Shown here in pieces: positions 11,888-31,208 of a stretch of DNA of 54,894 nt. The notes under the pieces are model-generated. The model was not told the DNA's origin and searched no databases. It was given only the letters and a program-made list of their open reading frames with translations. The DNA comes from Bacteroidales bacterium (GTDB lineage: Bacteria; Bacteroidota; Bacteroidia; Bacteroidales; UBA932). Numbering within the stretch: the first letter of the stretch is position 1; each line of letters begins with the position of its first letter. The translations under genes and the position numbers were made by a program. The stretch covers positions 1 through 54,894 of the forward strand of contig JAAZCF010000165.1 in the NCBI GenBank assembly GCA_012513425.1. The letters run 5' to 3'.

Positions 11888-12002
11888 TTTTCACGGACTC
11901 GTATTTTTATTTAATACAAGTTCGTGATAAGGAGCCCTTATAATTTATATTGCCCCGCTATCACGGACTCGTATTTAAACATATACACTTGTAACGTGTT
12001 AT
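11888..12002 (+). promoter_or_regulatory. Conserved regulatory cassette, copy 1 (inverted relative to copies 2 and 3)
   Basis: 15-bp sites lie at 11891..11904, 11914..11928 and 11960..11974 (ATCACGGACTCGTAT / ATACAAGTTCGTGAT). They surround TTATAATTTATATT, and CTTGTAACGTGTT lies at the right end. Confidence 0.6.
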
Positions 12003-12405
12003 TTATACCCATTATTTATACGTAAACCGAGCCCCGTAAATGTATATACTACCGCGTAATTTTTGGACCTACACCTTGCAAATTTTGGACTGTTAATCTA
12101 CAGGCTGTAGATAGACGTGGACTCTGTTCCTCTATATCGCGAGCGCCGTAGCGCCAGGCGCGGGCAGAATTGTCAGAAAATTCGCGCAATTTTTGGATCG
12201 TCAGAATTGTCTGACAATTCAGAATAATCACTGTTTCACATGCAATTGAGACTATTCAGAATGTTCACGATTTCATATGCAAATGAAAATATTCTTACAA
12301 TTCTAAATATTCACGATTGCACATACATTTGCAACAATTCATTTTTATGCAATCATTCACATAAATATGAAATTGTGGCAATTCTGTGAACATTCCATTT
12401 TTCTG

Positions 12406-12434
12406 TTTACATTTCCATTCAATCATGATATATT
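12406..12434 (+). promoter_or_regulatory. Sigma-A-type promoter for the plus-strand early block
   Basis: TTTACA (12406..12411), a 17-nt spacer ending in TGa, then TATATT (12429..12434). It lies about 150 nt upstream of the 12594 gene. Confidence 0.6.
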
Positions 12435-12593
12435 ATAATTGTAAGTTGAATAAATAAATCAAACATTGAAAGCGTGGTGAAATTGCATGGCAATTTGAAA
12501 CAATTCTGACAATTCTGATTCGTTCTTTGACAACTGAATATTCTGACAATTCAGCGTATATCAAAATTACAAAGTGAAAGGGGAAAATTAGTT

Positions 12594-13103
12594 ATGTTAA
12601 AAAATATTTCTGCATTAGCTGAAAAGTTCACAAACGCTGAGGAGGTTCGCAAGGAATTAAAACGCGTGCAATCTATCAAGTGCCGCTTGAAAAAACAAAA
12701 AGCCCGCGAGGATTACGAAGCGCGCATGAAAGAGGTGCTTGAATATGAACAGGCCTTAAAAGAGGTGCGCGATTACTTCGAGCCGAAAAAGAAGCCTGTT
12801 ACGCAATTCACTTGGGATGACATTCAACAACTTGATTACGAAGAGACAATGAAAGCTATCAAGTCAATTCAGTCTAAAAAGTGCAACGTTCAATTCTTGA
12901 CAGAACGAATTGAAGATAACGTAGAATATCAGAAAGCATGCGAAATTGAGCAAATGTTGCTCGAACACAAAAAGAATATCAAGCCGGTTGAAGACACGGT
13001 TGTTCGCAAATCAGAAATAAAGAACTTGATAGAACATCTAGAAGGTTTAGAGCCAAAAGTCGACCGCGATTATGTGATAGACTTGCTAAGAAAGCTTATG
13101 TGA
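12594..13103 (+). CDS. Hypothetical early protein, Lys/Glu-rich coiled coil (IQSKK-motif family)
   Basis: 169 aa with RBS GAAAGGGG. The motif ETMKAIKSIQSKKCNV is shared with the 14710 gene. Confidence 0.6.
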   Translation: MLKNISALAEKFTNAEEVRKELKRVQSIKCRLKKQKAREDYEARMKEVLEYEQALKEVRDYFEPKKKPVTQFTWDDIQQLDYEETMKAIKSIQSKKCNVQFLTERIEDNVEYQKACEIEQMLLEHKKNIKPVEDTVVRKSEIKNLIEHLEGLEPKVDRDYVIDLLRKLM

Positions 13104-13151
13104 TGCGGGCCGCCTGCACAGGCGGTCCAACAACAAAGGAGGTAGTTAGCA

Positions 13152-13232
13152 ATGCGTCTGTTTACAATCAAAGGCAAACCTGCCGAAATTATGGCGCAGC
13201 TTAGATTGCTGATTCAAATATTCGGCCAATAA
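13152..13232 (+). CDS. Small ORF (26 aa) with a strong RBS
   Basis: AAAGGAGG lies 9 nt before the ATG. The product is MRLFTIKGKPAEIMAQLRLLIQIFGQ and is followed by hairpin 13240..13267. It is below the ORF-track size cutoff. Confidence 0.35.
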   Translation: MRLFTIKGKPAEIMAQLRLLIQIFGQ

Positions 13233-13623
13233 TCTACACAGACCGGGATTGGCCCATGGCCCGGTCTTTAAAATAAATAAACCCACGCCAGGGGGAGAAA
13301 GGCATTGAATTGTCAGAATATTCAGAATTATTGCGGCCTCGATTGGCCAAAGCTGAACCGTGCTGCATAGACGCGGTCTCAATTAGACTGAGCTAAGCCG
13401 CATAAAAGCCATCGCAATTGGCCCCTGCGTCACCAAGCAAAACCACACTGCATAAAAGCAGCGCCGCTTAGCTACACCTGACCTAGTTGTACTGCAATGC
13501 TGAACACTTTAGAAAATAAAATTGCTTATGCCATCCGCAAGGAAATGTAATATAATTAAAATAGTTACAGGAAATATAATCGCACCTGTAGCTACAATCA
13601 GCAAAATTATAAATTAGGAGTGA

Positions 13624-14076
13624 TTGATGATGAATATCAAGAGAGCGCGTCTGGTGGAAACTAGAAGCGGCCGCGCAGCAGTTGAAATGGCCGTACATTA
13701 CGGTGAAGAAGTTGATTTGATTACAATTAATAGTGACCAAATCGTCTACACCGAAGGCAACGACAATGTGCTGTGGTTTACATCCAGCTGGAGAAAGTTG
13801 GTAAGATACCTCAGTGTACCAAACGCTGTCAGCGTCTACAGGCAGTTTAAAGCAGTATGGAAGTTTCCATCTTACATCGAAGATGAATGTGACATTCGAG
13901 CGTTAGATTTACTGCTTGATTTCGTTTCATGTGCAAGCAAGCTGAGCGACAACTGGCAGAGCTTCTTAAACAATAATTATCCGTTTATAGAAGATTTTGA
14001 AACAGTGCTATTTGATTTAATAGACTGGCAAAATACGATAGTTTCAATAATTGAAAACAACGGTTGGGAAGATTAA
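13624..14076 (+). CDS. Hypothetical early protein
   Basis: 150-aa acidic ORF with RBS TTAGGAG. Confidence 0.55.
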   Translation: MMMNIKRARLVETRSGRAAVEMAVHYGEEVDLITINSDQIVYTEGNDNVLWFTSSWRKLVRYLSVPNAVSVYRQFKAVWKFPSYIEDECDIRALDLLLDFVSCASKLSDNWQSFLNNNYPFIEDFETVLFDLIDWQNTIVSIIENNGWED

Positions 14077-14219
14077 TCAAAGATGGGAGCGGTAAACCCA
14101 GCGCCGCTCCCAGCTACCCGAGCCGGAGGCGATAAGCTGAAAGGAGGTGAATCGGCTGCCTCCTCGGCGGGTAGGCACCGCCATCAATCCCCATACAGTT
14201 ACCTCTTAGATTCCTCTTT
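14077..14219 (+). ncRNA. GC-rich structured 3' region / ncRNA candidate
   Basis: Hairpins lie at 14085..14111 (GGGAGCGG/CCGCTCCC), 14118..14167 (loop displays AAAGGAGGTGA) and 14166..14182 (GGCGG/CCGCC). All lie between the stop codon and the terminator. Confidence 0.4.
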
Positions 14220-14247
14220 GCCGCGCCCCATTCGCGGCATCTTTTTT
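14220..14247 (+). terminator. Rho-independent terminator
   Basis: GCCGCG ccccatt CGCGGC followed by ATCTTTTTT. Confidence 0.7.
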
Positions 14248-14709
14248 AACCGCGCAACGCAGCCCCGATTGGACGATGCTAAACTACAACCTGAATAATG
14301 AAGTTCCATTCCGGCTAATCGACACCGCATGTAGTTCTTATTCGATGCTGAGTTTAACTACAGGCATGTGGACAAACACGGAAACCCATTACCGCAAGGA
14401 ACCGCACGCGGCCTCGATAGGTCCGAACTGAATCAGATAAAGCGGCCTCGATAAGACCATGCAATACAGCGCCACCGCGACCTTAGTTAGACGGAGTTAA
14501 AGACGGTATCTCACTACAGTGAGTCGTGTGCAGCTGCATAAAAGCAACTGCAGTAGGTCCCGTATCATCGAGCAAGACCGTACCACCATCTGCAGTAGAG
14601 CGCGGAAAATAAAATTTCCTGAATCATCTGCGTTAAGCTTGGTTATAATATAAGTAGAGTTAGAAAATAACTCAAAAATAAAAATTACAAAGTGAGGAGC
14701 GATAATATC

Positions 14710-15522
14710 ATGGCAAAGAAACAACTTAATAACGGTGTAGCTGTTAGCAACGACGCGCTGAACGGATTGTTCGCGGAAGAGGTTCAGGTGGTGAAGGTTG
14801 GCGGTGCAAATCAACTATCAAAGACTGCTCAGCTTACGCAAGTAGCTACAGTCATTGCAAACGAGATTTTTGCGAAAATCACTGCTGACCCAGAAACTTA
14901 CCAAGCAAAGGTTCTTGAGAGCCAAAAATCGCACGATGCAATGGATGAGCTAATCGATGAATTGTATCAGCTCGATACGGTAGACACAAGCTTCTTGCAA
15001 TCAGAACCTGAAGAGACTCTTGAGAAAATGATTCGCTCGCAGCAATCAAAACGTTCTCGAGCTAAAGGCAAACAAATGACTAAAGAGAACTACTTGAATA
15101 TGATGGTTGGAGCAATCTCAGAGAATCTACTACGCTTGGTTACTGGCAAGCCAAAGTCAGCTGGCGGCGGATATGTTGCGAAAGACATTGTCTACAGCGA
15201 AAAGGATTTAGAATATCTTGCACAGCATCCTACGGAGCTGAAAAAAGCAATCCGCAACATTCAAAGCAAGAAGTCAATTATGAAATCAAAAGCAGACTTT
15301 GACCCACAAAGCGAGCGTTGGCAACAGTTACTACAGGCCGAGCAACAGCTTAAGGAACTTCGTAGCCACGTAAATGGTGCGGTTAATAAAGAAGCCAAGG
15401 AAGCGTTAGAGGCGAAACAAAAGCTGGAAGAAATGTTAGCAACTAGAGACCTCGACAGCTTGCCACCAGAAGAAGCAAAGCAGCTACTCGATGCTGTTAA
15501 AGAAATGCTTGCTAGTAAGTAA
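14710..15522 (+). CDS. Hypothetical early protein (IQSKK-motif family, larger paralogue)
   Basis: ATG 14710 follows RBS AGTGAGGAG. The tracked GTG start lies inside the RBS. Motifs are ELKKAIRNIQSKKSIMK and MIRSQQSKRSRAK. Confidence 0.6.
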   Translation: MAKKQLNNGVAVSNDALNGLFAEEVQVVKVGGANQLSKTAQLTQVATVIANEIFAKITADPETYQAKVLESQKSHDAMDELIDELYQLDTVDTSFLQSEPEETLEKMIRSQQSKRSRAKGKQMTKENYLNMMVGAISENLLRLVTGKPKSAGGGYVAKDIVYSEKDLEYLAQHPTELKKAIRNIQSKKSIMKSKADFDPQSERWQQLLQAEQQLKELRSHVNGAVNKEAKEALEAKQKLEEMLATRDLDSLPPEEAKQLLDAVKEMLASK

Positions 15523-15525
15523 CGA

Positions 15526-15554
15526 GGGGTGCGTTTAGCGCCCCATTTATTTTA
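15526..15554 (+). terminator. Rho-independent terminator
   Basis: GGGGTGC gttta GCGCCCC followed by ATTTATTTTA. Confidence 0.7.
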
Positions 15555-15571
15555 TAAACGAGGTGAGACTG

Positions 15572-15727
15572 TTGCTGGCCGCATTTATGATAGTAGTATT
15601 CTTTTGGCGACTATGGGAGCTCATTCAACTAGACCGTTGCGCCAAGCATGGACACAAGTTCAAAGTCAATGGTAAGTATCTACAATGTGAAAGGTGTTAC
15701 ACAGTAATATATAACAGCCGCCAGTAG
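15572..15727 (+). CDS. Small membrane / Cys-rich ORF (46-51 aa)
   Basis: RBS GAGGTGA, then TTG 15572 or in-frame ATG 15587. The product is ..MIVVFFWRLWELIQLDRCAKHGHKFKVNGKYLQCERCYTVIYNSRQ. It is bracketed by two terminators. Confidence 0.4.
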   Translation: MLAAFMIVVFFWRLWELIQLDRCAKHGHKFKVNGKYLQCERCYTVIYNSRQ

Positions 15728-15741
15728 GCGGTTTCTTTTTT
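15717..15741 (+). terminator. Rho-independent terminator
   Basis: CCGCC agta GGCGG followed by TTTCTTTTTT. Confidence 0.75.
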
Positions 15742-16107
15742 AGACCGTAGCGCGGTGTCGATTGGACGGCGTATAGCATATCTACAGGCTTGTGGACAAA
15801 CTTCGCCACGCGGCACTGAGGGTAAGATTCAATGCAGCCTCGATTAGCCAAAGCTACTACTATACATCGGCGCAGCGCCACTCGGCCCAGGTTAGTTGAA
15901 CTACAGGTCTGTGAACATATTCCGCCATGCGGCGCTGAGGGGTCTCTGCGGCGCGGCCTCGATTAGTCAAGGTAGTACTTCACTATAGAGAAATAGTGCC
16001 ACTTCGCCCAATCGAAACCGCGATTATTACCTACAGTCTGCTTTGGCCTATAAAAGCAAATCTCGTAGACCCCGCGGCGCAGCGATGCAGTGGCGTCATA
16101 TTTTTTA

Positions 16108-16151
16108 GCCTATAAAAGCAAACTCATTGGCCTATAAAAGCAAACTCATTG
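16108..16151 (+). repeat. Perfect tandem duplication of a 22-bp unit
   Basis: GCCTATAAAAGCAAACTCATTG occurs twice, with a degenerate third copy at 16046..16065. Confidence 0.95.
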
Positions 16152-16330
16152 AACTACCTCGCCGCAGCGCCGGTGTAACTACAGGCATATTTATAATGGT
16201 TGCTGTGCTGGTGTAATTATAGGAAGATTCAGAACTGTTACTGGGTTAGTGAGTGGCGCGGCGCCGCGCGGCTGTCAGCCAAGCGAATCTGCGCGGGTTG
16301 GAGTCACCAAGCGTCGTATATTTATTGGAT

Positions 16331-16990
16331 CAGGTTGAGGTATTAAAATATTGAGATATTAAAATATTGAGATTTTGAGGTACAAGCGACTTTTTACTAC
16401 AAACCCAAGCGTATCAAGACTTTGAAGGGCTTCTGATTATCTTAATAACTCAATTAACTTAATTATCTAAATTATCTAAGTGACCTTGCGCGATTCGGAG
16501 CGGCTATATATAAATTGATAACTTTTTATAAATATGTCTATTAATTTCTATTAATGGATATTGCTAACTACAGTTCTTTCTAATATTAATTTCTATTATA
16601 TTATATAATCCAAAAATAATCTGATAAAATTCGTGCTAAAGAAAATAATAAATTACTATATAGATATAAAAGAAATCATATAGTATTGTAGATATATAAT
16701 TAGCACGAAAATTATCAGATTATATTTAGCTAATAGATATATTACATATGTAGATATATTTCTATATCCATATCCAGTATACATAATGTCTGTAGATAAA
16801 TAAAAAAGCTCATTTTAATAAAGGGATTCTAAATCGCGCGAGGTTGTTTAGATAATCAAAATAATTGAGTTAATTGAGGTGGTTGAGGTACATAGAAAGC
16901 TTCTAAAGCCTTGATACGATTGGGTTTGTGGTAAAAAAGTTATCTTAAAATCTAACACCTTAATATTTAATCTACCTCAATTATTGTTTA
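16331..16990. repeat. Imperfect palindrome of about 660 bp: 170-bp arms around an AT-rich iteron core (origin candidate)
   Basis: The left arm (16331..16500) matches the reverse complement of the right arm (16826..16990), for example CTTTTTACTACAAACCCAAGCGTATCAAGACTTTGAAG vs CTTTTTTACCACAAACCCAATCGTATCAAGGCTTTAGAAG. A nested inverted repeat lies at 16616..16639 / 16701..16724. Confidence 0.8.
16341..16372 (+). repeat. Perfect tandem duplication of a 16-bp unit
   Basis: TATTAAAATATTGAGA occurs twice, inside the left arm of the large inverted repeat. Confidence 0.95.
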
Positions 16991-17087
16991 TCTCAGCCGC
17001 GCTGCGGCACTGTGTCACATACTATCTACACCATTGTAGATACATAATAGCTGAATCACACCCATCAAAACTCGTGCAACAAAAGTG

Positions 17088-17124
17088 TTATATCAATTAA
17101 ACCTTGTGCGTATAATATAATTAG
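17088..17124 (+). promoter_or_regulatory. Promoter-like element with the GCGTATAATATAATTAG block
   Basis: TTATAT (17088..17093), a 17-nt spacer, then TATAAT (17111..17116). It lies 37 nt upstream of ATG 17153. Confidence 0.45.
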
Positions 17125-17152
17125 AGCGACCAACATAATAGGAGGTAACTGT

Positions 17153-17614
17153 ATGTTTGAGTGCAAATTGTGCCATAATCTACTACCAAAAGAAATGGAA
17201 TGTACATCGCATGAAAGGCTGTGTAACAAGTGTAACAACATGCTACACATATACAGACGCGCTATGTCTCAATCATCAATAACTGTAGAGCAACAAATGA
17301 CAGTAGCATATGTAGAAAGATTGATTGAGCACAATAAACAACGAGGCGGCTATGTGCCAAAGATCTACAACCGCCCATTGTCTGTTTACAAATGTGAGTA
17401 TTGTGGTAATAACTTTGGGTCAAGAGTCCAGACCAGTAAGTGTGAAGAGTGTAAGAAGCGTGAGGCTGTTTACCGGACATTGATACACAAAGTTAAAAGA
17501 ACTGGTAAACACTCCGACCGCTTAGCAGAAATAGAGGAATATTATACTATACAAGAGCGGCGCGGCTTGAAGGTGCCGAAAATATTCTTAAAACATCGAG
17601 GTGAGTTGTTGTGA
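17153..17614 (+). CDS. Double Zn-ribbon protein, tandem paralogue A
   Basis: 153 aa with RBS AGGAGG. Motifs are CKLC...CNKC, EHNKQRGGYVPKIY and CEYC...CEEC. Confidence 0.65.
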   Translation: MFECKLCHNLLPKEMECTSHERLCNKCNNMLHIYRRAMSQSSITVEQQMTVAYVERLIEHNKQRGGYVPKIYNRPLSVYKCEYCGNNFGSRVQTSKCEECKKREAVYRTLIHKVKRTGKHSDRLAEIEEYYTIQERRGLKVPKIFLKHRGELL

Positions 17615-18063
17615 TTATTACATGCGCACTGTGCCATCAACAAGGAGAGAGATCAAGTGCGAATCGAAGACTATGTAAGCCATGTAATCGTAAGCTGAAT
17701 AAGTACAAGAGGTTAGTAGTTAAAGACAGGGCAAAGCTTCCTCCAGGTAATATAAAACTATTAGAACAAATGGAAGCAATGTTCGAGCATAATAAGCAGC
17801 ACGGCGGCTATGTGCCGCAGTTCTATGGCAAACTTTTGTATGAGGGTACATGTGTTACATGCTTAAAACGTTTTAAATGGGTGTCTGGAAATGATATATG
17901 CCCAAATTGCAGAAAAGATAAAACTATGTTCTATGTCTATTATAACAAGCATGGCCTGGTTGGCAAAGCAGCAGAATATTATGACTACTATCTAGACTTG
18001 TATAGAAAAGGTCGTAAAGTTCCTCAATTGTTTATCGACCTATATACAGGCAAGAAGAAATAA
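17611..18063 (+). CDS. Double Zn-ribbon protein, tandem paralogue B
   Basis: 150 aa with a GTGA start/stop overlap with paralogue A. Motifs are CALC...CKPC, EHNKQHGGYVPQFY and CVTC...CPNC. Confidence 0.65.
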   Translation: MIITCALCHQQGERSSANRRLCKPCNRKLNKYKRLVVKDRAKLPPGNIKLLEQMEAMFEHNKQHGGYVPQFYGKLLYEGTCVTCLKRFKWVSGNDICPNCRKDKTMFYVYYNKHGLVGKAAEYYDYYLDLYRKGRKVPQLFIDLYTGKKK

Positions 18064-18256: not shown

Positions 18257-18469
18257 TTATTCAGCAAATGGTGGTTCGGGTAATGGTAGCCAATGGGTCA
18301 CAGCTTTTTCGTGTCTCCACTCCAAACTATTAAAGAGATCCAATTCAAGTACATAAAATTTTCCGTTTTTGAATTTCGCTATATCATAACCACCGTAATA
18401 GTATATCAGATATTTTCCGTCTGATTCTGGTAGCCTTTCTTTAACGCTAATCCATTCATGCATCTTCAT
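18257..18469 (-). CDS. DUF551-like protein
   Basis: Start trimmed to MKMHEWISVKERLPESDGKYL, which matches the typical DUF551 signature WISVKDRLPE. Confidence 0.55.
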   Translation of the reverse strand: MKMHEWISVKERLPESDGKYLIYYYGGYDIAKFKNGKFYVLELDLFNSLEWRHEKAVTHWLPLPEPPFAE

Positions 18470-19052
18470 CCTCTCCCTCGTCAGTGTAGTTGTCCTCGTA
18501 TTCGTCGAATCTCTCAAGCACTTTGTTTAAAAGGTCGCGGTGAGTGTCATCGTATATCGGCTTGTAGGTATTAGAATCTACACCGATTTGTGGTCGGTAT
18601 TTCTTAATCAACTCATCGGCCACAACATCTTGTAGATACTCTGGGTCATACTGCGAAAGGTCTGCATTGAGCCAATCCAAGAGCTCCTGCGGCGCTGCGG
18701 CACTGACTAACTCGTCGGTGTCCTCTACGGAGCTGGTACTATGCTTCTCGAGCAACTCATCTACAAGATTCAGGATTGTAGAGCGTTCCCGCTTGGATGG
18801 TGGCTTGAGGCCCTTAGCGCGTAACAGGTCGTACAGCTGCTCGATTTTATCTAGCTCCTGTAGTTCCTGCTCGCTGGCTCTGCCGTTGGACTGTTTCTTG
18901 CAGAGGTATTTGTACCGGGTGTTGATGGATTCGCAGGCCTTGCAGGTGCGGTAGCGCCCGCGCTCTTTGCCGGTGCGCGTCTCGCCGTAGTATTGACGGA
19001 ATTCGGTTTCTAGTTTGATTTCGCCACATTGTCTGCACTTTCTAAACTTCAT
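18456..19052 (-). CDS. Zn-ribbon module protein with an acidic C-terminus
   Basis: N-terminus CRQCGEIKLETEF...RYRTCKACESINTRYKY. The tail reads DEYEDNYTDEGEDEDA. Confidence 0.55.
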   Translation of the reverse strand: MKFRKCRQCGEIKLETEFRQYYGETRTGKERGRYRTCKACESINTRYKYLCKKQSNGRASEQELQELDKIEQLYDLLRAKGLKPPSKRERSTILNLVDELLEKHSTSSVEDTDELVSAAAPQELLDWLNADLSQYDPEYLQDVVADELIKKYRPQIGVDSNTYKPIYDDTHRDLLNKVLERFDEYEDNYTDEGEDEDA

Positions 19053-19938: not shown

Positions 19939-20100
19939 TCAATTGACCTCCTCTTGCGGTACGCAATCTTCTATGCAAAATTCTTCAACGTAGCCTGTAG
20001 CATCTATCTCAACAGCAACAGTATTGTTGTCCAAAGGGTCCAGCCAAATAACTGTACCCTCTAGACCTCTAACTAGAACTTTGTCACCAGGTTTAACCAT
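19939..20100 (-). CDS. Small hypothetical protein
   Basis: Start trimmed to MVKPGDKVLVRG after RBS GGAGGG. Confidence 0.45.
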   Translation of the reverse strand: MVKPGDKVLVRGLEGTVIWLDPLDNNTVAVEIDATGYVEEFCIEDCVPQEEVN

Positions 20101-20692
20101 GTACGACCCTCCTGAAAATATGGTTAGTTTCATCATGGACATAAAGCATACCACATACGCATTGACAAAGACCTGAACGTGCATCCAGCACTTCGTATGA
20201 CGCTTGTCCACATGCACATAAGAAGTACGGTTCGTAGATGCCTTCTTTATGATTGTAGATATATTTCGCGTTACATCCTTTACAATATAGTTCGCCGACT
20301 TTTACTAGCTCAAAATCGTCGCATCCACATTGGCAGCGCAGCGATTCACTAGCTTCTTGCTCATTAAAAGTTTCTTCACCAATCTGTAGGTTGATTGCAG
20401 CGTCAACAACACCATCATAAATTTGTTCCAGTAGTTCGGCCTTACCAGAGACTATAGTAGCAATCCAGTCATCGAGCCGCGGTAGATGTACGGCGATGTG
20501 GTACATAATGACTGAGCCAAGTTCCTTAGGTCCAGGAAACTCTGTGTTACTAACGAGTTCAGCCAGTAGATTAATGCAAGCGTTCAGGTAATCATCAGTT
20601 AAAACGAATTGCGAGAAACTACACTTCTCACAATGCAAGTGTGAACCAGACTTTACTAAGTTACCTGTTTTGCAGACGGGGCATTTATTCAT
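20093..20692 (-). CDS. Multi-CxxC protein
   Basis: Start at ATG 20692 (MNKCPVCKTG) or GTG 20704. There are several CxxC pairs along the protein. Confidence 0.5.
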   Translation of the reverse strand: MNKCPVCKTGNLVKSGSHLHCEKCSFSQFVLTDDYLNACINLLAELVSNTEFPGPKELGSVIMYHIAVHLPRLDDWIATIVSGKAELLEQIYDGVVDAAINLQIGEETFNEQEASESLRCQCGCDDFELVKVGELYCKGCNAKYIYNHKEGIYEPYFLCACGQASYEVLDARSGLCQCVCGMLYVHDETNHIFRRVVHG

Positions 20693-20864
20693 TTGATTCT
20701 TCACCCTTAACTACACACTGTTTGGAGCAATAGTGCTTTATCCTTTCTGCACCTCTTGCTACAGTGTACCAATCCTTCGGAATGTCCGCCATCCCGAATA
20801 AGTCTACATAAGTAACAGGACGTTGTTTGCCACAGTAATCGCATTCTACAACTTGTTTAATCAT
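20685..20864 (-). CDS. Small Cys-containing ORF (59 aa)
   Basis: ATGA overlap with the ThyA-like stop. The product is MIKQVVECDYCGKQRPV...HYCSKQCVVKGEESNE. It is just below the track cutoff. Confidence 0.45.
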   Translation of the reverse strand: MIKQVVECDYCGKQRPVTYVDLFGMADIPKDWYTVARGAERIKHYCSKQCVVKGEESNE

Positions 20865-21664
20865 ACTGATACCTCCCCTTTAATTGTTGGATGATGTTGA
20901 TAACCTACAAGCTCAAAGTCTTCGAGCTCAAAATCATCAATTGACTTAATTTCACGATTGCGCTTGTTGATGCTAATCTTAGGTAGCGGGTATGGCTTAC
21001 GTTGTAATTGTGTTTTTACTTGTTCCAAGTGGTTCAAGTAAATGTGCGTATCGCCTAAGTTGTAGATAAGCTCACCAGGTCTTAACCCAGTGACATGTGC
21101 AACCATGTGAGTTAAAGTTGCGTAGGATGCGATGTCGAATGGTAACCCAAGAAACACATCGGCGCTGCGTTGATTCACTAGTGTGCTTAATCTGCCATCG
21201 TTGTGTACGTAGAACTGATACGAATAATGGCAAGGCGGAAGTGCCATCTCATCAAGTTCACCTGGATTCCATGCTGTCACTAACATGCGACGGTCTGTAG
21301 GATTATTCTTGATTGTATCAATTGCTTTTTGTAGCTGGTCTATTGTTTTTAAATCCTTTTTCCAGCTACGCCATTGCACGCCATACACTGGACCCAGTTC
21401 ACCATAAGGGTCAGCCCATTCGTCCCAGATGTGAACATTGTTGTCTAACATGAACCCAATGTTTGAAGAGCCACTAAGCATCCATAAAAGCTCAACCCAT
21501 ACGCCTTTGATGAAGAGTCGCTTAGTTGTTACAGCTGGAAAACCCTTTTGTAAGTCAAATCTAAGTTGCCGGCCGAACACGGAGATAGTCCCCGTGCCGG
21601 TACGGTCTATACGCTGTTCGCCATTTTCAAGTACATCTTTAACTAAGTCTAGATATTGACGCAT
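20861..21664 (-). CDS. Thymidylate synthase (ThyA) family enzyme with Asp177 in place of the specificity Asn; candidate dCMP C5-transferase
   Basis: It aligns without gaps to E. coli ThyA over DRTGTGT, WDEWAD, LGPVYG.QWR, ALPPCH and QRSADVFLGLPFDIASY. Codon GAC lies at 21134..21136. Confidence 0.9.
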   Translation of the reverse strand: MRQYLDLVKDVLENGEQRIDRTGTGTISVFGRQLRFDLQKGFPAVTTKRLFIKGVWVELLWMLSGSSNIGFMLDNNVHIWDEWADPYGELGPVYGVQWRSWKKDLKTIDQLQKAIDTIKNNPTDRRMLVTAWNPGELDEMALPPCHYSYQFYVHNDGRLSTLVNQRSADVFLGLPFDIASYATLTHMVAHVTGLRPGELIYNLGDTHIYLNHLEQVKTQLQRKPYPLPKISINKRNREIKSIDDFELEDFELVGYQHHPTIKGEVSV

Positions 21665-21667
21665 ACA

Positions 21668-21859
21668 TTACTCTCCTTCAAACATTTTGTCAAAGCATTT
21701 ACCGCAAATACCTGAAATCATAATCTCGCGTTGGTCAGGTGTTAGTGTAGGTAGTGCATATTGGATGTGTTCTCCTTCAAGCCAACGTTTGTAGCCCTCA
21801 TCAGATACTTCAAATGAGTATTGCTTACCACATATTATACAATTAGTTGTATACAACAT
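21668..21859 (-). CDS. Small Zn-binding protein
   Basis: 63 aa with CIICG...CGKC. Confidence 0.45.
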   Translation of the reverse strand: MLYTTNCIICGKQYSFEVSDEGYKRWLEGEHIQYALPTLTPDQREIMISGICGKCFDKMFEGE

Positions 21860-22296: not shown

Positions 22297-23232
22297 TTAT
22301 TGCATTACTTCATGTACATAATATTGTGTGAACATTTGCTTGTTACCGAATGCCCAAATTTTGTCAGTGAATTTTGCGTCTGTATTTACTCTGTTGTTAG
22401 CCTCAATGATGATTTGCGCCTTTGCATCTACACTATCAGCATAGTGTACAATAATAGCTTCTAAGAAGCGCGGTGTTGTAGGAGAGCCGTACTCAAGTTC
22501 TCCGTGGTGCGAAGATACTATATGCAGTATCAAGTCTAGCACAGCTGAGTTTTCAGGTGTTCTATACTTTTCTAGTTTCATTGCTCCCAGCATGATGTGC
22601 TCAAGCATTTGGCCTTGGTCTGTCATTTCAATGACAGCACCATTTAGTTCATAAGTCCAAAGTTTACCCATATCATGTAGTAGCGCTCCTGCAACTACTA
22701 GGTCAACATTACACATTGGAGTCAGTTCTGCAATAGCTTTTGCTTTTGTAGCTACATCAACAGTATGCTTCAACAAACCAGATACAAACGCATGGTGCAC
22801 TCCTTTAGCACCAGGAGTCGTTTTCCATAGTTTTGCATTGTCATTAAACACTTGCACAACAATGTCTCTAGCATATTGATTTGTTATAGATTCCATCAAA
22901 GCTTTGGCTTTTGCAACATACTCTTCAACATCTACATCTCCAGATGGAGCGAATGTTTCTACACTGACGTTACTAGGTTTCATTGTGAATAACTTTAGTT
23001 GTTTCTTACCCATATACTCAGTGACAGTTGCTACTATGTCTATTACTGCGTTCTTTGCTGGAGGCTGGTTGTTGCCAAACTCCCAGTCCTGTGCTTGAAT
23101 TGTGTCGGTACCATCAGTTAGCTCAGCGAAGAGATAAGGCTTTTGAGCTTTAGTTAGTTTAATCTCTGCCGATTTAACCAGCAGTGTTGTAGATACTGTT
23201 TCACCTATATACATGTCTTTAATCTTTAGCAA
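22297..23232 (-). CDS. OB-fold plus HD-domain phosphohydrolase (YhaM-like 3'-5' exonuclease family)
   Basis: 311 aa. An N-terminal OB-like region is followed by HHAFVSGLLKHT, LHDMGK and SSHHG. Confidence 0.65.
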   Translation of the reverse strand: MLKIKDMYIGETVSTTLLVKSAEIKLTKAQKPYLFAELTDGTDTIQAQDWEFGNNQPPAKNAVIDIVATVTEYMGKKQLKLFTMKPSNVSVETFAPSGDVDVEEYVAKAKALMESITNQYARDIVVQVFNDNAKLWKTTPGAKGVHHAFVSGLLKHTVDVATKAKAIAELTPMCNVDLVVAGALLHDMGKLWTYELNGAVIEMTDQGQMLEHIMLGAMKLEKYRTPENSAVLDLILHIVSSHHGELEYGSPTTPRFLEAIIVHYADSVDAKAQIIIEANNRVNTDAKFTDKIWAFGNKQMFTQYYVHEVMQ

Positions 23233-23810: not shown

Positions 23811-23896
23811 ATCAGATTCTCCAATCTAATGTTTATTCTAACAGGTAGCGGTTTGGCCGGCAAGCTCTCAAATGTCTTGCGGCCCATAACCGCCAT
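23807..23896 (-). pseudogene. Dihydrofolate reductase relic (29-codon fragment)
   Basis: The translation [29 protein letters not shown] matches the DHFR core motif (I)[15 protein letters not shown].NIV. There are no flanking DHFR segments. Confidence 0.5.
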
Positions 23897-23901
23897 GTTA
23901 C

Positions 23902-24054
23902 TTAGTCATGTTCACTGTCATTATTAAATTCATCATCTGCGCTATTTTCCAACTCCATGTCTCTTCTACGTTTGTATTCTTCTAGTTCATCAATTTCAAC
24001 TTTGCGATAATTACGTTCCCATGCCATTGGCCACGAAAATCTGTCAAGGTTCAT
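23902..24054 (-). CDS. Small acidic ORF (50 aa)
   Basis: RBS GGAGTG. The product is MNLDRFSWPMAWERNYRKVEIDELEEYKRRRDMELENSADDEFNNDSEHD. Confidence 0.35.
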   Translation of the reverse strand: MNLDRFSWPMAWERNYRKVEIDELEEYKRRRDMELENSADDEFNNDSEHD

Positions 24055-24075: not shown

Positions 24076-24798
24076 TTAGTCCTTTAGCAATCCTAGACGC
24101 TCTAAAATCACTGCTAGTTGTGCGCGTGTGACAGGTTCATCTGGACCATATCTACCATCACTATGGCCTCTAATGATTCCTGCTTTCATTGCCTTTCTAA
24201 TGCTTTGTTCTGCCCAATGACCTGTAACGTCATCTTTTACTCCTTTTTTCTTGAGCCCGAACGCCTTCTCAAGGCCAATGACATGACCATAAGCGACTTG
24301 TTGTAGGAACTGCTCTGTTTTCAATTTGGCAGCGTCACTTGGATTGTCAATGAATAAATTTTCCGTTAGTAAAGCAGGCATATTTGTTTGACGAAGTACT
24401 GCAAAGTTAGCGCGTTTCTTTCCGCGATCACGCACATTGCCGATTGCTTTCACAATCTCGGCGTGAATCACGTTTTGATATGCTATTGTCGCTGAACTAA
24501 CATTACCGTTGTATATGAATGTCTCAAAGCCCGTACCCTTGCCGCTGCCACTAGCGTTGATGTGAACACTCAAGAAAAAGTCTGCTTTTGCTTTGTTTGC
24601 AATTGCCGCGCGTTCGGACAAATCAATAAAACGGTCGTCTGTGCGGGTGTAGATGACTTTTACACCCTCATAGTTTTTGAGCATGGCGCCAATTCTTTTG
24701 ACGATATTCAATGTCAAATCTTTTTCTCTAAGCCCGTGCCCAACTGCACCTGGGTCGCTGCCTCCATGTCCCGGATCTAATACGATAACCTTACTCAT
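24076..24798 (-). CDS. Endolysin: N-acetylmuramoyl-L-alanine amidase (Amidase_3) with a C-terminal SLH domain
   Basis: The N-terminus VIVLDPGHGGSDPGAVG...SVHINA is the amidase part. The C-terminus VTGHWAEQSIRKAMKAGIIRGHSDGRYGPDEPVTRAQLAVILERL is an SLH motif. Confidence 0.85.
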   Translation of the reverse strand: MSKVIVLDPGHGGSDPGAVGHGLREKDLTLNIVKRIGAMLKNYEGVKVIYTRTDDRFIDLSERAAIANKAKADFFLSVHINASGSGKGTGFETFIYNGNVSSATIAYQNVIHAEIVKAIGNVRDRGKKRANFAVLRQTNMPALLTENLFIDNPSDAAKLKTEQFLQQVAYGHVIGLEKAFGLKKKGVKDDVTGHWAEQSIRKAMKAGIIRGHSDGRYGPDEPVTRAQLAVILERLGLLKD

Positions 24799-25299: not shown

Positions 25300-27315
25300 T
25301 TAGCGAACTAAGTCAAACACAGAACCATCAAACACATTGAATTCTAAAGTACTTTGCATTTCTTCTTCTGTGAGAGGTTCAAATCCAACATCACCCGGGT
25401 CCACTTTTTCACCCCAAGATGGATTACCCTTTTCAGCGCCTGCTGTGATAGGCACCCTAAATTCTTTAAAGTCAGACAACAACCATCGTAGTTTAGGTAT
25501 TAAATGTAATTCACTCTTATGCACTTCTAATACTAATTCGTCATGTACTACATTCACCATACGTGTCTTATAACCATGCGCCATAAGGAACTTGTAAATA
25601 AGCACAATCTTATGTTTAATGTAGTCCGCGGCGCAGCCTTGAATCAGCGCGTTAGGCGCTTTATACGCCTCATCCCAAGTTAATCTACGACGTCGTTCAT
25701 ATTTGTTTTTGACATAACCTCTTGCGCGTACCACACTATGCACAGTATTTATAAAAGGAAGAGCTTCAGGAATCATAGCAAAGTAGTGCTGCTTAAAACT
25801 ACGAGCCTCGTTTAAAGGCATTTTAAGCAATGTAGCCGTTAACTCGTCGCCTTGCCCATAGATTAAGCCGAAGTTAATAGTCTTCGCTTTAGCGCGCTCA
25901 TCCTCAGTAACTTCTTCATAAGGTTTGTTGTAGATAATCGCAGCTGTAGCTTGGTGCACGTCATGACCATTCTTAATTGCTTCAATAAGTCCTTGCGCTT
26001 GGGCATAGTGAGCAAATATGCGGTACTCAATCTGATCAAGATCCATAAACCACAGCTCATACCCTTCAGAAGGTATGAATGCTTTACGTATGCGCTTGTC
26101 CTTTTTTGGCAACGTTTGCAGAGCTGGCTTGGTTATAGACATACGGCCCGTAGTTGCTTCTGTTTGGTTTATGGAACCATGAACTTTACCTTCAGCGTCA
26201 CGTTGGTCATAAATACCTATAGCGTAAGTACCAAGCAGTTTTTCATATTTACGATATTCCTGAATTTTGATGAGTAAGTCAATATTGTGCACCTCAATCA
26301 AACGTTTCAGTTCATCTTTGTCAAGTTTAATATTACCTTTCTCAGTGTATCTGAATATGCTAGGGTCTACACCTAAATCTAATAAGGCCTTGTGTATTTG
26401 TTTGTTAGAGTTCATGTTAAACATATAGCCCACAGTGTCGTAGACAGCTTGCTCAGCTTCATCGGCTAGGCGCTGTAGTTCTGCTTTGAGCGGCTCTTCG
26501 TAGTTAGGGTCTGTCTGCATACCGAAACGTTCTTTTGCCCACAGTGCTATCATCAATTGTATTTCATTCTCATATAGCATTTCTAAGCCTTCATTAACTA
26601 GTTTCGGATACTCATTGACAAATAGCACATAAGCATTCCATACGTCAGCATTCGCATACTCAGTAAGTAGCTCACGTGGAATTAATCGATAATCTGCTAC
26701 ACCATGTGTTTTCTTGTAGGTGTCTACCATGTATTCAAACTTCACTATTCCATCTTTGTATTTTGCAGCAATGTCCATTAACTTGAATGAGTGTCTATTC
26801 TCGTTCACAAGCTTCGCAATAATAACTGTGTCGTGTAGTTTACCTACCATCTTCATGCCAATATTTGCAAGCATGTGCATATCGAACTTTGTATTATGGT
26901 ATACTTTCTCAATTGTCGGGTCTTCAAGCAATACTTTGAGCTTTCTTAACTCTTCATAACCATTTTCTGCTGAGTCATATAATGTTATCATGTTTTTGCC
27001 ATCACAAATACTTATACAGAAAGGTAAATCTACAGGAGTTGCTCTTTTACCAGAACCAATCCAGCGACGAACAACGTTGCGCTGCATTTCATGGTTCTTG
27101 AGGTCAGTAGGATAGTCCTCTGTATCCATGAATAGGAATTTGCGGCCCATAAACTCAAATGGTTGTATTAAGTTCAAAACATCTTCAGCCTTTGTAGTTT
27201 CATAAGAGTTAGGCATCTTATGTTCTTTTGCAAATGTGTCTGGATTGTACGAGAAGTTTGTACCTTTCTTAATAACTGTTCTACGTTTGCGCTGAATAAC
27301 AGCCATGTTTCTCAC
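25300..27315 (-). CDS. DNA polymerase, family A (Pol I-like) with a 3'-5' exonuclease domain
   Basis: 671 aa. Exo motif FMDTED; motif A DLDQIEYRIFAH; motif B RAKAKTINFGLIYG; motif C VHDELVLE. Confidence 0.95.
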   Translation of the reverse strand: MRNMAVIQRKRRTVIKKGTNFSYNPDTFAKEHKMPNSYETTKAEDVLNLIQPFEFMGRKFLFMDTEDYPTDLKNHEMQRNVVRRWIGSGKRATPVDLPFCISICDGKNMITLYDSAENGYEELRKLKVLLEDPTIEKVYHNTKFDMHMLANIGMKMVGKLHDTVIIAKLVNENRHSFKLMDIAAKYKDGIVKFEYMVDTYKKTHGVADYRLIPRELLTEYANADVWNAYVLFVNEYPKLVNEGLEMLYENEIQLMIALWAKERFGMQTDPNYEEPLKAELQRLADEAEQAVYDTVGYMFNMNSNKQIHKALLDLGVDPSIFRYTEKGNIKLDKDELKRLIEVHNIDLLIKIQEYRKYEKLLGTYAIGIYDQRDAEGKVHGSINQTEATTGRMSITKPALQTLPKKDKRIRKAFIPSEGYELWFMDLDQIEYRIFAHYAQAQGLIEAIKNGHDVHQATAAIIYNKPYEEVTEDERAKAKTINFGLIYGQGDELTATLLKMPLNEARSFKQHYFAMIPEALPFINTVHSVVRARGYVKNKYERRRRLTWDEAYKAPNALIQGCAADYIKHKIVLIYKFLMAHGYKTRMVNVVHDELVLEVHKSELHLIPKLRWLLSDFKEFRVPITAGAEKGNPSWGEKVDPGDVGFEPLTEEEMQSTLEFNVFDGSVFDLVR

Positions 27316-28009: not shown

Positions 28010-28417
28010 TTATATCTTTACTACTTGTATACCTGCGGCGCGGAGTAGCCTCAGTCCTGTGTCCTCTTTCCAGTCCTCAAAATAGTACACTGTAGAAAAC
28101 CCGCCAGGTGTGTTAATAATCGCTGCGGCGCATTGTTTGCACGGTGCCAGCGTTACAAACATCACTTTGTCAGGGTCTTGGCATTTATTTTTAACCAGAC
28201 AATTTATCTCTGCATGGACACACCCATATTTGCCATCTACAACACATAGACAATTAGCGAGTCCTTTCGGTCCACCGTTCAATCCAATGCTGTAGACTTG
28301 AGTAAAATCTTTATCTGTTATGATTGCTGCTACTTTTCTTTCTCGGCATTTTGATAGTGTAGCTAGATTTTGCGTAAATTCTTTAAAGACCTTTAATCTC
28401 ATGTTCAATTGGACCAA
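28010..28417 (-). CDS. dCMP deaminase (ComEB / cytidylate deaminase family); start uncertain
   Basis: Zinc motifs CVHAEINC and PCKQCAAAI. About 130 aa. Confidence 0.8.
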   Translation of the reverse strand: MVQLNMRLKVFKEFTQNLATLSKCRERKVAAIITDKDFTQVYSIGLNGGPKGLANCLCVVDGKYGCVHAEINCLVKNKCQDPDKVMFVTLAPCKQCAAAIINTPGGFSTVYYFEDWKEDTGLRLLRAAGIQVVKI

Positions 28418-29036
28418 CCGCCTTTTCTAACTGCATTATTAGATAGCTGAAGATTTTGTCGCGACGTTCTTCAGTTAAACCCATACGCCGGCCTGTAGTT
28501 CCGTATTTATCAAACCACTTGAAAGGATTTTCCTGATACCGCGCTACGCTACCGCATTTCTCACACATAGGAAGCATGTTCCATGCTGTATAATGGCCAC
28601 CACTTTTAAACGGCACAAAGAACTCGCGCTTTGCTATATACTCATCGCCACATATTGCGCATCCTCCAAAGTATGAACAAGTCTGTAGCCACTCTTCCTC
28701 TGTCATCGGCTTGAAAGTCTTGTTGCTTAACTCAAGCCACTTTTTGAACAGCTTTTCAGCATATTCAGCACGGCGCTTGTGAAAGTTATGGCGGTTCTTT
28801 GCATGTAGGTCTGGCCTGCGTTTGTTAAATTCATTTTTACGGTTACTTTCGCATCGCTTACATCTGGTCTCAAGTATGCCTTTCTTGCTCATATAAAACT
28901 CTTTAAACGGCTTCCATTGCTTGCAAGTTCTACAAAACTGTGTAGGAAAATACGTTTTGCAAAATTTACATTTTTGAGCAATGTAGCTGAGAGGGAATTC
29001 CCAGCCACATTTATTACAAACTCTTACTGAGTTCAT
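28383..29036 (-). CDS. Zn-ribbon module protein with an HNH-like C-terminal domain
   Basis: The N-terminus has CNKCG...CKFC and CRTCKQWKPFKEF...RCKRCESNRKNEF. The C-terminus is CAICGDE...GGHYTAWNMLPMCEKCGS. Confidence 0.55.
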   Translation of the reverse strand: MNSVRVCNKCGWEFPLSYIAQKCKFCKTYFPTQFCRTCKQWKPFKEFYMSKKGILETRCKRCESNRKNEFNKRRPDLHAKNRHNFHKRRAEYAEKLFKKWLELSNKTFKPMTEEEWLQTCSYFGGCAICGDEYIAKREFFVPFKSGGHYTAWNMLPMCEKCGSVARYQENPFKWFDKYGTTGRRMGLTEERRDKIFSYLIMQLEKAVGPIEHEIKGL

Positions 29037-29484
29037 ATCGCATCACCGGTATATGATGTGGTATTTTATGCATCAGCCATTCATACGTATGCTTAATGGC
29101 AGCCAACTTGTCATATTCTGTGATGTAGTCCTCACCACGCTCTTGTGAACGTAGCCAGAGTAAATCTACCTTATCTGTGCAATGAATTATAATGCCGCCA
29201 CCATTCTTGACCAATGCGCTTTCCAGCTCATGCATTTGTTCAATAGTGATGTATGATTGGTCGCGCATAATTTTACCATACACCATTTCGGAATACCAAC
29301 AACGGTCAAATATTGCATTTTGTTTGTTATACACAGCCTGTAGATATGACTCATACATCTCTTGCTTTTCTTTTTCATTTTTAGGCTTACTACGATGAAT
29401 ATAAGGAAAGCCCAGCATATCTACTAGCTTATTAGCTAGTGTAGTTTTACCTGCACCTTCAGGTCCTTCAAGAATGATAATCAT
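29014..29484 (-). CDS. Thymidylate kinase-like dNMP kinase
   Basis: P-loop LEGPEGAGKTT and a DR motif (FDRCWYSE). 156 aa. Confidence 0.7.
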   Translation of the reverse strand: MIIILEGPEGAGKTTLANKLVDMLGFPYIHRSKPKNEKEKQEMYESYLQAVYNKQNAIFDRCWYSEMVYGKIMRDQSYITIEQMHELESALVKNGGGIIIHCTDKVDLLWLRSQERGEDYITEYDKLAAIKHTYEWLMHKIPHHIPVMRYELSKSL

Positions 29485-29764: not shown

Positions 29765-30148
29765 CTATCTATAAATTTTATTGTGAGTGTAGCCTTCATC
29801 TTGGCGGCGATGATTTTCTGTATTCTTAGCTACATACTCTTTGTAGATGTCGTCAGATAACATATTAAGTAACAATGCAATGTTTAAGATAAAATGCCAT
29901 AAATCAATGAACTCCTTGCGTGCTTTATCAAATGCTGCTTCAATCTCTTCTGAAGTCATTCTACTATAATCTTTCCAAGGCTTAAAGAACGGCAGCTCAT
30001 ACAGCATCTCGTTCATTTCTTGATTAGCATGAATACTAAACTCTTTAATCAATGCTACACGCGCTTCATGAGGCATGTCTGTGAAGTCGTATCCTAAGCG
30101 TTGTTGCAAAGTATTCTGTAACATTAACATCTCTTGTAGTTTATCCAT
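29765..30148 (-). CDS. All-alpha NTP pyrophosphatase (dimeric dUTPase / MazG-like), paralogue 1
   Basis: Start trimmed to MDKLQEML after RBS GAGGAGGAG. Motifs HANQEMNEMLYE...EFIDLWHFILNI. Confidence 0.6.
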   Translation of the reverse strand: MDKLQEMLMLQNTLQQRLGYDFTDMPHEARVALIKEFSIHANQEMNEMLYELPFFKPWKDYSRMTSEEIEAAFDKARKEFIDLWHFILNIALLLNMLSDDIYKEYVAKNTENHRRQDEGYTHNKIYR

Positions 30149-30161
30149 ATCAAACTCCTCC

Positions 30162-31208
30162 TCATTTAACTGTAAATGTTCTATATTTGATTGTTTTCTT
30201 ACAAGCTTCATAAATATCAGGGAACTCAGTTTTTAACTTATCTGTATCTACACGTGTCTGAGTCCTAGGTGACCATTTTATAATATGGTCAGTTGTATAG
30301 CCGATTTCATTATTTTGCATCTTATTTTGTAACTTGTGAATAGCCTCATTCATCTTCTTCTCAAGCTCTTTTATTTGTTGCTTTGTTTGCACAATGAACT
30401 CGGCTAATTCATTGTCTTCATCATCCGTAAGAGCTATTTCAGAGTCCTTCTCTGCATCTGGGAATTGTGACTGTATAAAGGCTGCATCAGCTTCGCTGCC
30501 GCTAAGGTCAGGTTCTATTAAGTTCTTTACATGATAGTTCCAAAATTTATCAGCAGCTGGGAATATTGTGTTCTTAATCAAATCATCGTCACGATACACT
30601 TCTAGTGTAACAAATCTATTCCCACCAATAAGCCCCGCGATGGCGCCGTACTTAAGACCTGTTATCCATAAGTACCATTGTAGTTGGTAAATATACGAAG
30701 TAGGTACATCACCTTCTTCCCAGTCCTTAAGCATCCGAGCGTCCGCTGTTTTAATTTCTAAGATGCCAATAGGCTTCTCTTCATCATCTACAATCACACG
30801 GTCAATGTTCGCTAATGCCCATTCATAGTCTTTGTGGCGCAGTGTTGCTGGACATATAACTACCCTCTTACCGGTACGCTCCATGAACTCGTCAGCGATA
30901 ATAGGCTCTAGTTTGTGTCCCCACTTCATACGCTCCAGCGCTACCTCACTCATGTTAAGGGATTCGTTATCTTGATACTGTCCGGTCTTTTTGAAATACA
31001 GCAGTCGTGCGGAGGAATATTTGTTCACTCCGCATATAGTACCAATATCCGAACCTCCGATACCTTTTGTGCGAACTGCAAGCCATTGTTCTTCATCTTC
31101 ATCTTGACTTACTGTAGATAATACTCTACAATTTGTAAACTGCGCTAGAAATGCTTCCGGATTATTTACCCTTTGTGATTCTTCATAAAGCTTTGTAATA
31201 TTGTTCAA
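30162..31208 (-). CDS. YqaJ-like PD-(D/E)XK recombination exonuclease
   Basis: GIGGSDIGTICGVNKYSS at the N-terminus and the ILEIKT (ExK) motif. Confidence 0.75.
   Translation of the reverse strand: MNNITKLYEESQRVNNPEAFLAQFTNCRVLSTVSQDEDEEQWLAVRTKGIGGSDIGTICGVNKYSSARLLYFKKTGQYQDNESLNMSEVALERMKWGHKLEPIIADEFMERTGKRVVICPATLRHKDYEWALANIDRVIVDDEEKPIGILEIKTADARMLKDWEEGDVPTSYIYQLQWYLWITGLKYGAIAGLIGGNRFVTLEVYRDDDLIKNTIFPAADKFWNYHVKNLIEPDLSGSEADAAFIQSQFPDAEKDSEIALTDDEDNELAEFIVQTKQQIKELEKKMNEAIHKLQNKMQNNEIGYTTDHIIKWSPRTQTRVDTDKLKTEFPDIYEACKKTIKYRTFTVK

Follow-up and report, generated by a model that had tools for sequence, protein, structure and literature searches.

Which nucleotide is methylated by the ThyA-type thymidylate synthase (TS) homologue encoded at 20861..21664 on the minus strand of contig JAAZCF010000165.1 (assembly GCA_012513425.1), an enzyme in which an aspartate takes the position of the substrate-reading Asn177 of canonical TSs? 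The contig, which is 54,894 nucleotides (nt) long and is called the window below, represents the complete genome of a siphovirus-like phage. As judged from its active site, its conservation and its gene context, the homologue is predicted to be a methylase of deoxycytidine monophosphate (dCMP) that feeds a pathway leading to DNA with 5-methylcytosine (5mC), a mechanism to which we assign a probability of about 0.72.

Residue 177, its conservation and the fold

The open reading frame (ORF) codes for a product of 267 amino acids (aa), which matches the Pfam profile PF00303 over residues 2-267 of 267 (E = 2.8e-117) and carries its catalytic cysteine as residue 145, within the motif ALPPCH. An AlphaFold model of the protein (predicted local distance difference test score, pLDDT, 89.6) superimposes on E. 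coli TS with template modelling (TM) scores of 0.95-0.96 and a root-mean-square deviation of 1.3 Å, and the full-length profile match and the ThyA fold both place the protein in the ThyA superfamily. The sequence has 55% identity to E. coli ThyA and scores 406 bits against the NCBIfam ThyA equivalog, for which the cut-off is 327; automatic annotation would therefore name the gene a thymidylate synthase.

In canonical TS, Asn177 reads the O4/N3-H face of uracil. The homologue has an Asp, encoded by GAC, opposite the Asn of the motif GxPFNIASY, as seen in a global alignment to E. coli ThyA and in HMMER alignments to 6auj and 3ix6, two solved bacterial TSs; it thus departs from the Asn177 that characterizes a TS converting deoxyuridine monophosphate (dUMP) to thymidine monophosphate (dTMP; EC 2.1.1.45). 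The earlier note on this DNA had reported the same residue and codon, and the observation is confirmed: the sequence alignments put the Asp at the homologous position. The note's description of a gap-free alignment to E. coli ThyA holds from the QRS motif to residue 177, but not for the protein as a whole, in which one-residue indels after residue 101 and at 155 offset each other. Because of these two indels, the catalytic Cys146 of E. coli corresponds to residue 145 here, while residue 177 is in register.

Apart from residue 177, the first shell of the active site is that of a canonical ThyA. In E. coli numbering, the homologue retains R21, K48, E58, I79, W80, W83, Y94, R126, R127 and L143 as well as C146, H147, Q165, R166, S167, D169, G173, H207 and Y209, and its C-terminal tail is intact, ending in ...IKGEVSV; the exchange of Asn177 for Asp is the sole first-shell change. 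The TS-like features listed in the earlier note, namely Glu58, the IWDEWAD motif with Trp80 and Trp83, Tyr94 and the tail, were each found again by alignment. Cys146, the phosphate-binding residues Arg21, Arg126, Arg127, Arg166 and Ser167, Glu58 and Tyr94 are also invariant in the clade of Asp177 proteins to which the homologue belongs.

This clade became apparent in a set of the best 120 database homologues, 19 of which carry Asp177 and crowd the top of the ranking. Together with the query, all 20 of 20 clade members keep the Asp, whereas the neighbouring TSs have Asn without exception (102/102). The clade is monophyletic in a neighbour-joining tree calculated with column 177 removed (63% bootstrap), identity inside it falls to 56%, and both GAC and GAT occur as Asp codons. 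The clade-wide conservation and the use of two synonymous codons indicate that Asp177 is an old, selected character, and rule out a sequencing error or a private mutation. The clade has additionally fixed the second-shell changes L163V, F150Y, I112L, H201Y, L183T and F62M, which may tune the activity. Among the representatives of clusters formed at 50% identity, nine ThyA-like ones besides P0034 carry Asp177, and the nearest neighbours of several of these are Asn-type proteins, which hints that the switch may have arisen repeatedly among ThyA-like clusters. In IMG/VR, 10 of the 80 nearest loci combine Asp177 with Leu143, His147 and Asp169, as determined by tblastn-anchored residue calls.

The homologue is the only TS recognizable in the genome, in agreement with the earlier note. 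Searches of the genome by tblastn with the homologue itself, the Xp12 TS and T4 gp42 matched only the locus at 20861..21664, the RHRxxS motif of ThyX was absent from all usable ORFs, and no other TS domain came up when nearly all ORFs with at least 100 aa were scanned against Pfam.

Predicted product and its place in a 5mC pathway

Several published rules allow the product of such an enzyme to be predicted. Asp177 confers specificity for dCMP, and contigs with modified cytosine are enriched in Asp177 TSs (PMC8670742); TSs engineered from Asn to Asp turn into dCMP methylases, according to work cited in PMC8670742 and PMC13326640. Leu143 is paired with methyl products and Asp or Glu at this position with hydroxymethyl products (PMC6400193; PMC13326640). 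Methylases combine Leu143 and Trp83 with a C-terminal tail and release dihydrofolate (DHF), whereas hydroxymethylases possess a Ser/Thr-x-Tyr motif and, at the third residue ahead of the Cys, Asp or Glu, have no C-terminal tail and release tetrahydrofolate (THF) (PMC6400193; PMC13326640). The combination of Asn169 and Glu143 marks the 5-hydroxy-dCMP synthases of the RB69 gp48 and DLP3 gp80 type (PMC13326640).

The homologue falls on the methylase side of each of these distinctions. Its Leu142 (E. coli Leu143) sits three residues upstream of Cys145, and the apparatus for hydride transfer, consisting of a hydrophobic residue 143, Trp80 and Trp83, Asp169 and the tail, is complete. It differs from the T4 gp42-type hydroxymethylases by Leu142, by having Pro92 at the second position ahead of the Tyr94 equivalent and by the presence of the tail, and from the 5-hydroxy-dCMP synthases by the equivalents of Asp169 and Leu143. 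By the published rules, Asp177 together with Leu, Pro-x-Tyr, Trp83, the tail and Asp169 leads to 5-methyl-dCMP (5mdCMP) as the predicted product, which we expect with considerable confidence. The reading preferred in the earlier note, a dCMP methylase of Xp12-type chemistry, is thereby supported by the active-site residues and by the predicted functions of the neighbouring genes.

These neighbours include genes for a deaminase, a deoxynucleoside monophosphate (dNMP) kinase and a (d)NTP pyrophosphatase, predicted families that are linked to the 5mdCMP synthase class. Six related contigs, the TSs of which are 60-90% identical to the homologue, keep the order of the deaminase, kinase, dUTPase_2, PolA and HD genes, and most of them add a gene for dihydrofolate reductase (DHFR), as expected for a methylase that releases DHF. 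Deaminases linked to Asp177 TSs convert 5-methyl-dCTP (5mdCTP) to dTTP (bioRxiv 10.1101/2024.12.05.627091). At the 80 nearest IMG/VR loci, a deaminase is encoded within 10 kb at 4/10 Asp177 vs 3/70 Asn177 loci (Fisher P = 0.004), which reproduces the published association between TS and deaminase (bioRxiv 10.1101/2024.12.05.627091). In the same study, five of seven metagenomic Asp177 TSs, as well as the Xp12 enzyme, gave 5-methyldeoxycytidine (5mdC) in vivo.

From the residue, its conservation, the active site, the fold and the gene neighbourhood, all of which are observed, we infer the substrate, the product, the extent of replacement and the roles of the accessory genes in the following pathway. 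The single first-shell change of Asn177 to Asp would switch the substrate from dUMP to dCMP, and the reductive, hydride-transferring chemistry of TS would be kept, so that dCMP and 5,10-methylene-THF would yield 5-methyl-dCMP and DHF. A pyrophosphatase resembling gp56, perhaps aided by the YhaM-like exonuclease, would supply dCMP and lower the level of dCTP. After methylation of dCMP by the Asp177 enzyme, the phage dNMP kinase and the host NDP kinase would form 5mdCTP, which the family A polymerase of the phage would incorporate, leaving the cytosine of virion DNA largely or wholly replaced by 5mC. The small deaminase would convert part of the pool of 5mdCTP (or 5mdCMP) to thymidine nucleotides, a supply that would allow the phage to do without a dUMP-specific TS. 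Full replacement of cytosine by 5mC in virion DNA, taken as a separate claim, we hold to be only slightly better than an even bet.

The palindrome content of the genome is weak support for modified DNA. GATC occurs 36 times in the whole window compared to 140 expected occurrences (z = -10.7), which corresponds to an about four-fold under-representation, and is one of the four most avoided 4-bp palindromes together with GTAC, AATT and CTAG; CCGG, GGCC, GCGC, CGCG, AGCT, TGCA and ACGT are not avoided. According to published work on Xp12 5mC DNA, digestion is complete with MboI and DpnII (GATC) and with MluCI (AATT) and partial with RsaI and CviQI (GTAC), and enzymes for CCGG, GGCC, GCGC, CGCG, AGCT, TGCA and ACGT are blocked. 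Avoidance and cutting data agree in an exact rank test (P = 0.025), with the exceptions of CTAG and CATG, which are avoided though blocked, and of TCGA, which is cut but not avoided.

Several points weigh against the proposed pathway. The avoidance of GATC is present in the relatives L007 and L009 but absent in L005 and L006; the palindrome pattern is therefore host-dependent and not diagnostic, and it suggests that the hosts of the relatives differ in GATC-specific restriction systems. The phage itself has lost DHFR. A deaminase, a TS, a DHFR and a kinase also make up the ordinary dTMP module of phages (cd, td, frd and gene 1 of T4), and only Asp177 tells a dCMP methylase from such a module. 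The Xp12 enzyme is only 30% identical to the homologue and has Pro147, vs His147 in this clade. Two of the seven Asp177 enzymes tested in vivo yielded no 5mdC (bioRxiv 10.1101/2024.12.05.627091), and the selectivity of deaminases for 5mC has been published to be polyphyletic and not readable from sequence.

The enzyme might still, or additionally, be a working TS that tolerates Asp177, with the deaminase, TS and kinase leading from dCMP via dUMP to dTMP and with canonical virion DNA. This would fit a protein that passes the ThyA equivalog cut-off and has 55% identity to E. coli ThyA with the remaining catalytic residues intact, in a phage without any other TS and among neighbours resembling an ordinary dTTP module, and the strong avoidance of GATC, a C-containing site, may be added. 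However, an Asp that is invariant in a deep clade and faces Asn in all neighbouring TSs is unexpected for a neutral position, the engineered enzymes mentioned above become dCMP methylases, and there is a statistical link between Asp177 TSs and modified-cytosine contigs (PMC8670742), while avoidance of GATC is also compatible with 5mC, since 5mC does not prevent MboI and DpnII from cutting at this site. We regard a working TS as unlikely. Retention of the methylase activity with a different purpose, namely the use of 5mdCMP as an intermediate of a thymidylate bypass (from dCMP via a 5mdC nucleotide to a dT nucleotide) with little or no 5mC in the virion, appears quite unlikely as well. It would account for the conservation of the deaminase with the TS in all relatives, as such deaminases make dTTP from 5mdCTP, and for the high thymidine demand of a genome with 59% A+T, and the assignment of the gene at 29765..30211 as a dCTPase rests on a weak match; yet the same pairing of enzymes goes along with complete replacement of C by 5mC in Xp12 and PaMx74 (bioRxiv 10.1101/2024.12.05.627091), a bypass would offer no evident advantage over an ordinary TS, and the C-containing palindromes that are not avoided fit protected DNA.

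The earlier note had also kept a hydroxymethylase open. An enzyme like T4 gp42, or a 5-hydroxy-dCMP synthase like RB69 gp48, would produce 5-hydroxymethylcytosine or 5-hydroxycytosine, possibly decorated further, and both Asp177 and the clade-specific Val163 are indeed in common with gp42. However, Leu143 instead of Asp or Glu, Pro two residues before Tyr94, the retained Trp83 and tail, and Asp169 instead of Asn all point away from it, and the identity to gp42 is only 26%. Moreover, a DHFR gene is linked in the relatives, whereas hydroxymethylases release THF and not DHF, and glycosyltransferase, TET/JBP and carbamoyltransferase domains were absent from all Pfam scans made. Such a product is very unlikely, and 5mdCMP made by a dCMP methylase is the preferred reading.

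Neighbouring genes, genome and host

Most features of the window on which the proposed pathway and the host assignment draw, and a set of Cys-rich ORFs, are collected in Table 1.

Table 1. Positions of the TS homologue, its key codons and further features in the window, with the predicted functions and the matches supporting them.
Feature	Position	Strand	Evidence
ThyA-type TS homologue with Asp177; predicted dCMP C5-methyltransferase (5mdCMP synthase)	20861..21664	-	PF00303, ThyA equivalog, fold model
Asp177 codon GAC, column of E. coli Asn177	21134..21136	-	alignments and clade conservation
Catalytic Cys145 codon (E. coli Cys146), ALPPCH	21230..21232	-	coordinates derived from frame
YhaM-like OB-fold and HD-domain 3'-5' exonuclease	22297..23232	-	PF01966; PDB 9h3f YhaM, E = 4e-39, full length
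DHFR gene remnant	23822..23936	-	tblastn with L003 DHFR: 25 aa, 80% identity, E = 3e-8
Family A DNA polymerase with 3'-5' exonuclease	25300..27315	-	PF00476, PF01612; syntenic in all relatives
Small dCMP-deaminase-family enzyme, candidate 5mdCTP deaminase (dTTP supply)	28010..28417	-	PF00383, E = 1.2e-12; phrog_174
P-loop dNMP (thymidylate-type) kinase	29014..29484	-	Pfam dNK/Thymidylate_kin; phrog_761, E = 1.7e-21; syntenic in relatives
dUTPase_2-family all-alpha NTP pyrophosphatase, T4 gp56 dCTPase/dUTPase-like	29765..30211	-	PF08761, E = 4.3e-12
Second dUTPase_2-family NTP pyrophosphohydrolase	38838..39434	-	PF08761, E = 4.3e-31; phrog_173
Sigma-70-like factor	39613..40257	-	
DUF1256/YyaC-like protein (sporulation protease family)	43848..44315	-	
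3D-domain protein	44328..44909	-	
Cys-rich ORFs	10584..11057, 11050..11787, 17153..18063, 18456..19052, 20093..20864, 21668..21859, 28383..29036		

The deaminase is encoded by a 135-aa ORF, but with a true start that is probably the ATG at 28402 the protein would comprise about 130 aa. Its HAE and PCxxC zinc motifs are intact, as judged from a motif alignment with the Xp12 deaminase, its neighbours in the PDB are the deaminases of S-TIM5, T4 and PBCV-1, and it is found in six of six relatives. The smaller dUTPase_2 protein is a candidate for the step from dCTP to dCMP and likely starts at an internal ATG near 30148: T4 gp56 itself matches PF08761, and BLASTP aligns the two proteins with 45% identity over 42 aa (E = 8e-11), with matching C-termini. 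In the relative L007, a trimeric dUTPase (PF00692) occupies the slot syntenic to this gene. The second dUTPase_2 protein is closer to the ordinary dimeric dUTPases of Geobacillus phages, and the homologue from phage D6E falls in the same family; a PDB sequence search with it gave no match.

The YhaM-like gene lies beside the TS gene and is kept there in six of six relatives. Its product may break down host nucleic acid and thereby provide nucleotides; YhaM is a 3'-5' exoribonuclease of Firmicutes. The alternative assignment of this HD-domain neighbour as a dCTP triphosphohydrolase was rejected, as the protein is a full-length homologue of YhaM-type exonucleases. Of the DHFR gene, about 375 of 498 nt are missing in comparison to L003 (blastn), and an intact copy is present at the position of the remnant in L003, L004, L005, L006, L007 and L009. 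An endolysin gene (24076..24798, minus strand; Amidase_3 and SLH domains) adjoins the remnant and is lacking at that site in L003, which looks like a recent cassette exchange. The polymerase genes of L003 and L004 are interrupted by an insertion of ~590 bp (L003 5196..5788, corresponding to window position 26121) with a 103-aa ORF inside, possibly an intron or homing element, while the polymerase gene of the window is intact and free of it. Many small Cys-rich zinc-ribbon/HNH-like ORFs with CxxC...CxxC N-termini are spread across the early region and also flank the TS gene on both sides.

Window positions 1..79 are repeated at 54726..54804, and a tape-measure-like ORF on the minus strand runs off both window ends (53161..54894 and 1..about 2050), which identifies the window as a complete genome, circularly permuted and opened within this gene. 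The tape-measure-like gene contains Trp-rich tandem repeats of the PEWEWQPIPL type, the opposite strand of which reads as His-rich GHSHSG repeats. Few long ORFs are found at about 11800..17150, among them 12594..13103, 13624..14076 and 14692..15522 without any Pfam match, and overlapping blastn matches in both orientations between about 16200..17010 and L003 13969..15005 suggest internal repeats. Scans of the window for tRNAs and Rfam families found nothing.

With its Mu-type portal, large terminase and tail tube protein, the phage is siphovirus-like. No close relative among deposited phages was found by megablast, the best matches among cultured phages are at 61% identity for the TS and 32% for PolA, and IMG/VR contains no relative of the TS lineage above 60% identity. 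A 63-kb IMG/VR contig (L018, IMGVR_UViG_3300013102_000033) encodes an Asp177 TS of 56% identity and a deaminase that matches the family profile built in the present analysis with E = 5e-62; the contig probably belongs, as a distant member, to the lineage of the present phage. The catalytic domain of the endolysin is 78% identical to those of Geobacillus phage endolysins, and this enzyme, the YhaM-like exonuclease, the DUF1256/YyaC-like and 3D-domain proteins and the sigma factor point to a spore-forming member of the Bacillaceae, probably Geobacillus-like, as host.

Comparison with known systems

The novelty implied by the earlier note was overstated, as natural Asp177 phage TSs, the production of 5mdC by several of them and the linked deaminases have already been published. 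The Asp177 rule, its link to modified-cytosine viromes and the TS-deaminase pathway are all part of the literature (PMC8670742; bioRxiv 10.1101/2024.12.05.627091), and the gain over it is incremental. We tentatively propose, at somewhat less than even odds, that the phage represents the first lineage with 5mC wholly in place of C from a probably thermophilic, Geobacillus-like member of the Bacillaceae, with an enzyme converted from a host-like ThyA independently of Xp12. If this is true, 5mC, a base readily deaminated by heat, would be used by a high-temperature virus that has lost even its DHFR. Confirmation would extend the fully 5mC-substituted phages beyond the proteobacterial Xp12 and PaMx74 into uncultured siphoviruses of Gram-positive spore-formers, and would imply that one first-shell substitution suffices to switch the substrate of an ordinary ThyA, which may have happened repeatedly. 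Since annotation pipelines label the gene as thymidylate synthase, such modified-DNA phages stay hidden in databases. The class of the paired small deaminase now serves as a 5mC-selective sequencing reagent (bioRxiv 10.1101/2024.12.05.627091).

Compared by description, the metavirome Asp177 TSs, which are linked to mSCD-type deaminases (PMC8670742; bioRxiv 10.1101/2024.12.05.627091), resemble the homologue in the Asp, in 5mdCMP as the predicted product and in the presence of a dCMP_cyt_deam_1 gene, an NTP pyrophosphatase and a family A polymerase nearby. His147 is kept here, at a position reported to differ between modified and unmodified contigs (PMC8670742). The TS homologue of Xp12 (QNN97214.1), the classical deoxycytidylate methyltransferase, has Asp177, Cys146, Asp169, Tyr94 and Glu58 in common with the homologue; genes for a deaminase and DHFR adjoin it, and in the DNA of Xp12 all C is replaced by 5mC. 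This phage, with a genome of 63.8 kb, infects a Gram-negative host, and its enzyme differs from the present protein in having Leu165 and Phe83, an inserted loop ahead of the Cys and another C-terminus. The latter is much closer to E. coli ThyA than to the Xp12 enzyme (55% vs 30% identity), and the low identity together with the residue differences indicates separate lineages, so that a shared function would be convergent.

T4 gp42 shares the TS fold, the catalytic Cys, the equivalent of Glu58 and the Asp at column 177, but this hydroxymethylase has Asp145 where the homologue has Leu, Val in place of Trp83, a Ser94-x-Tyr96 motif and no C-terminal tail, and it adds water and releases THF. The closest TSs of cultured phages are those of the Geobacillus-type phages D6E and GVE2, which possess a similar LPPCHY motif; unlike the homologue, the D6E enzyme has Asn177 and is a canonical TS. 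A counterpart in terms of residues is the engineered Asn-to-Asp ThyA, which carries the same single first-shell change, while the natural clade adds its fixed second-shell changes. If the predicted activity is true, evolution would have repeated the classic N177D experiment in the phage enzyme, with one residue converting a host-like ThyA.

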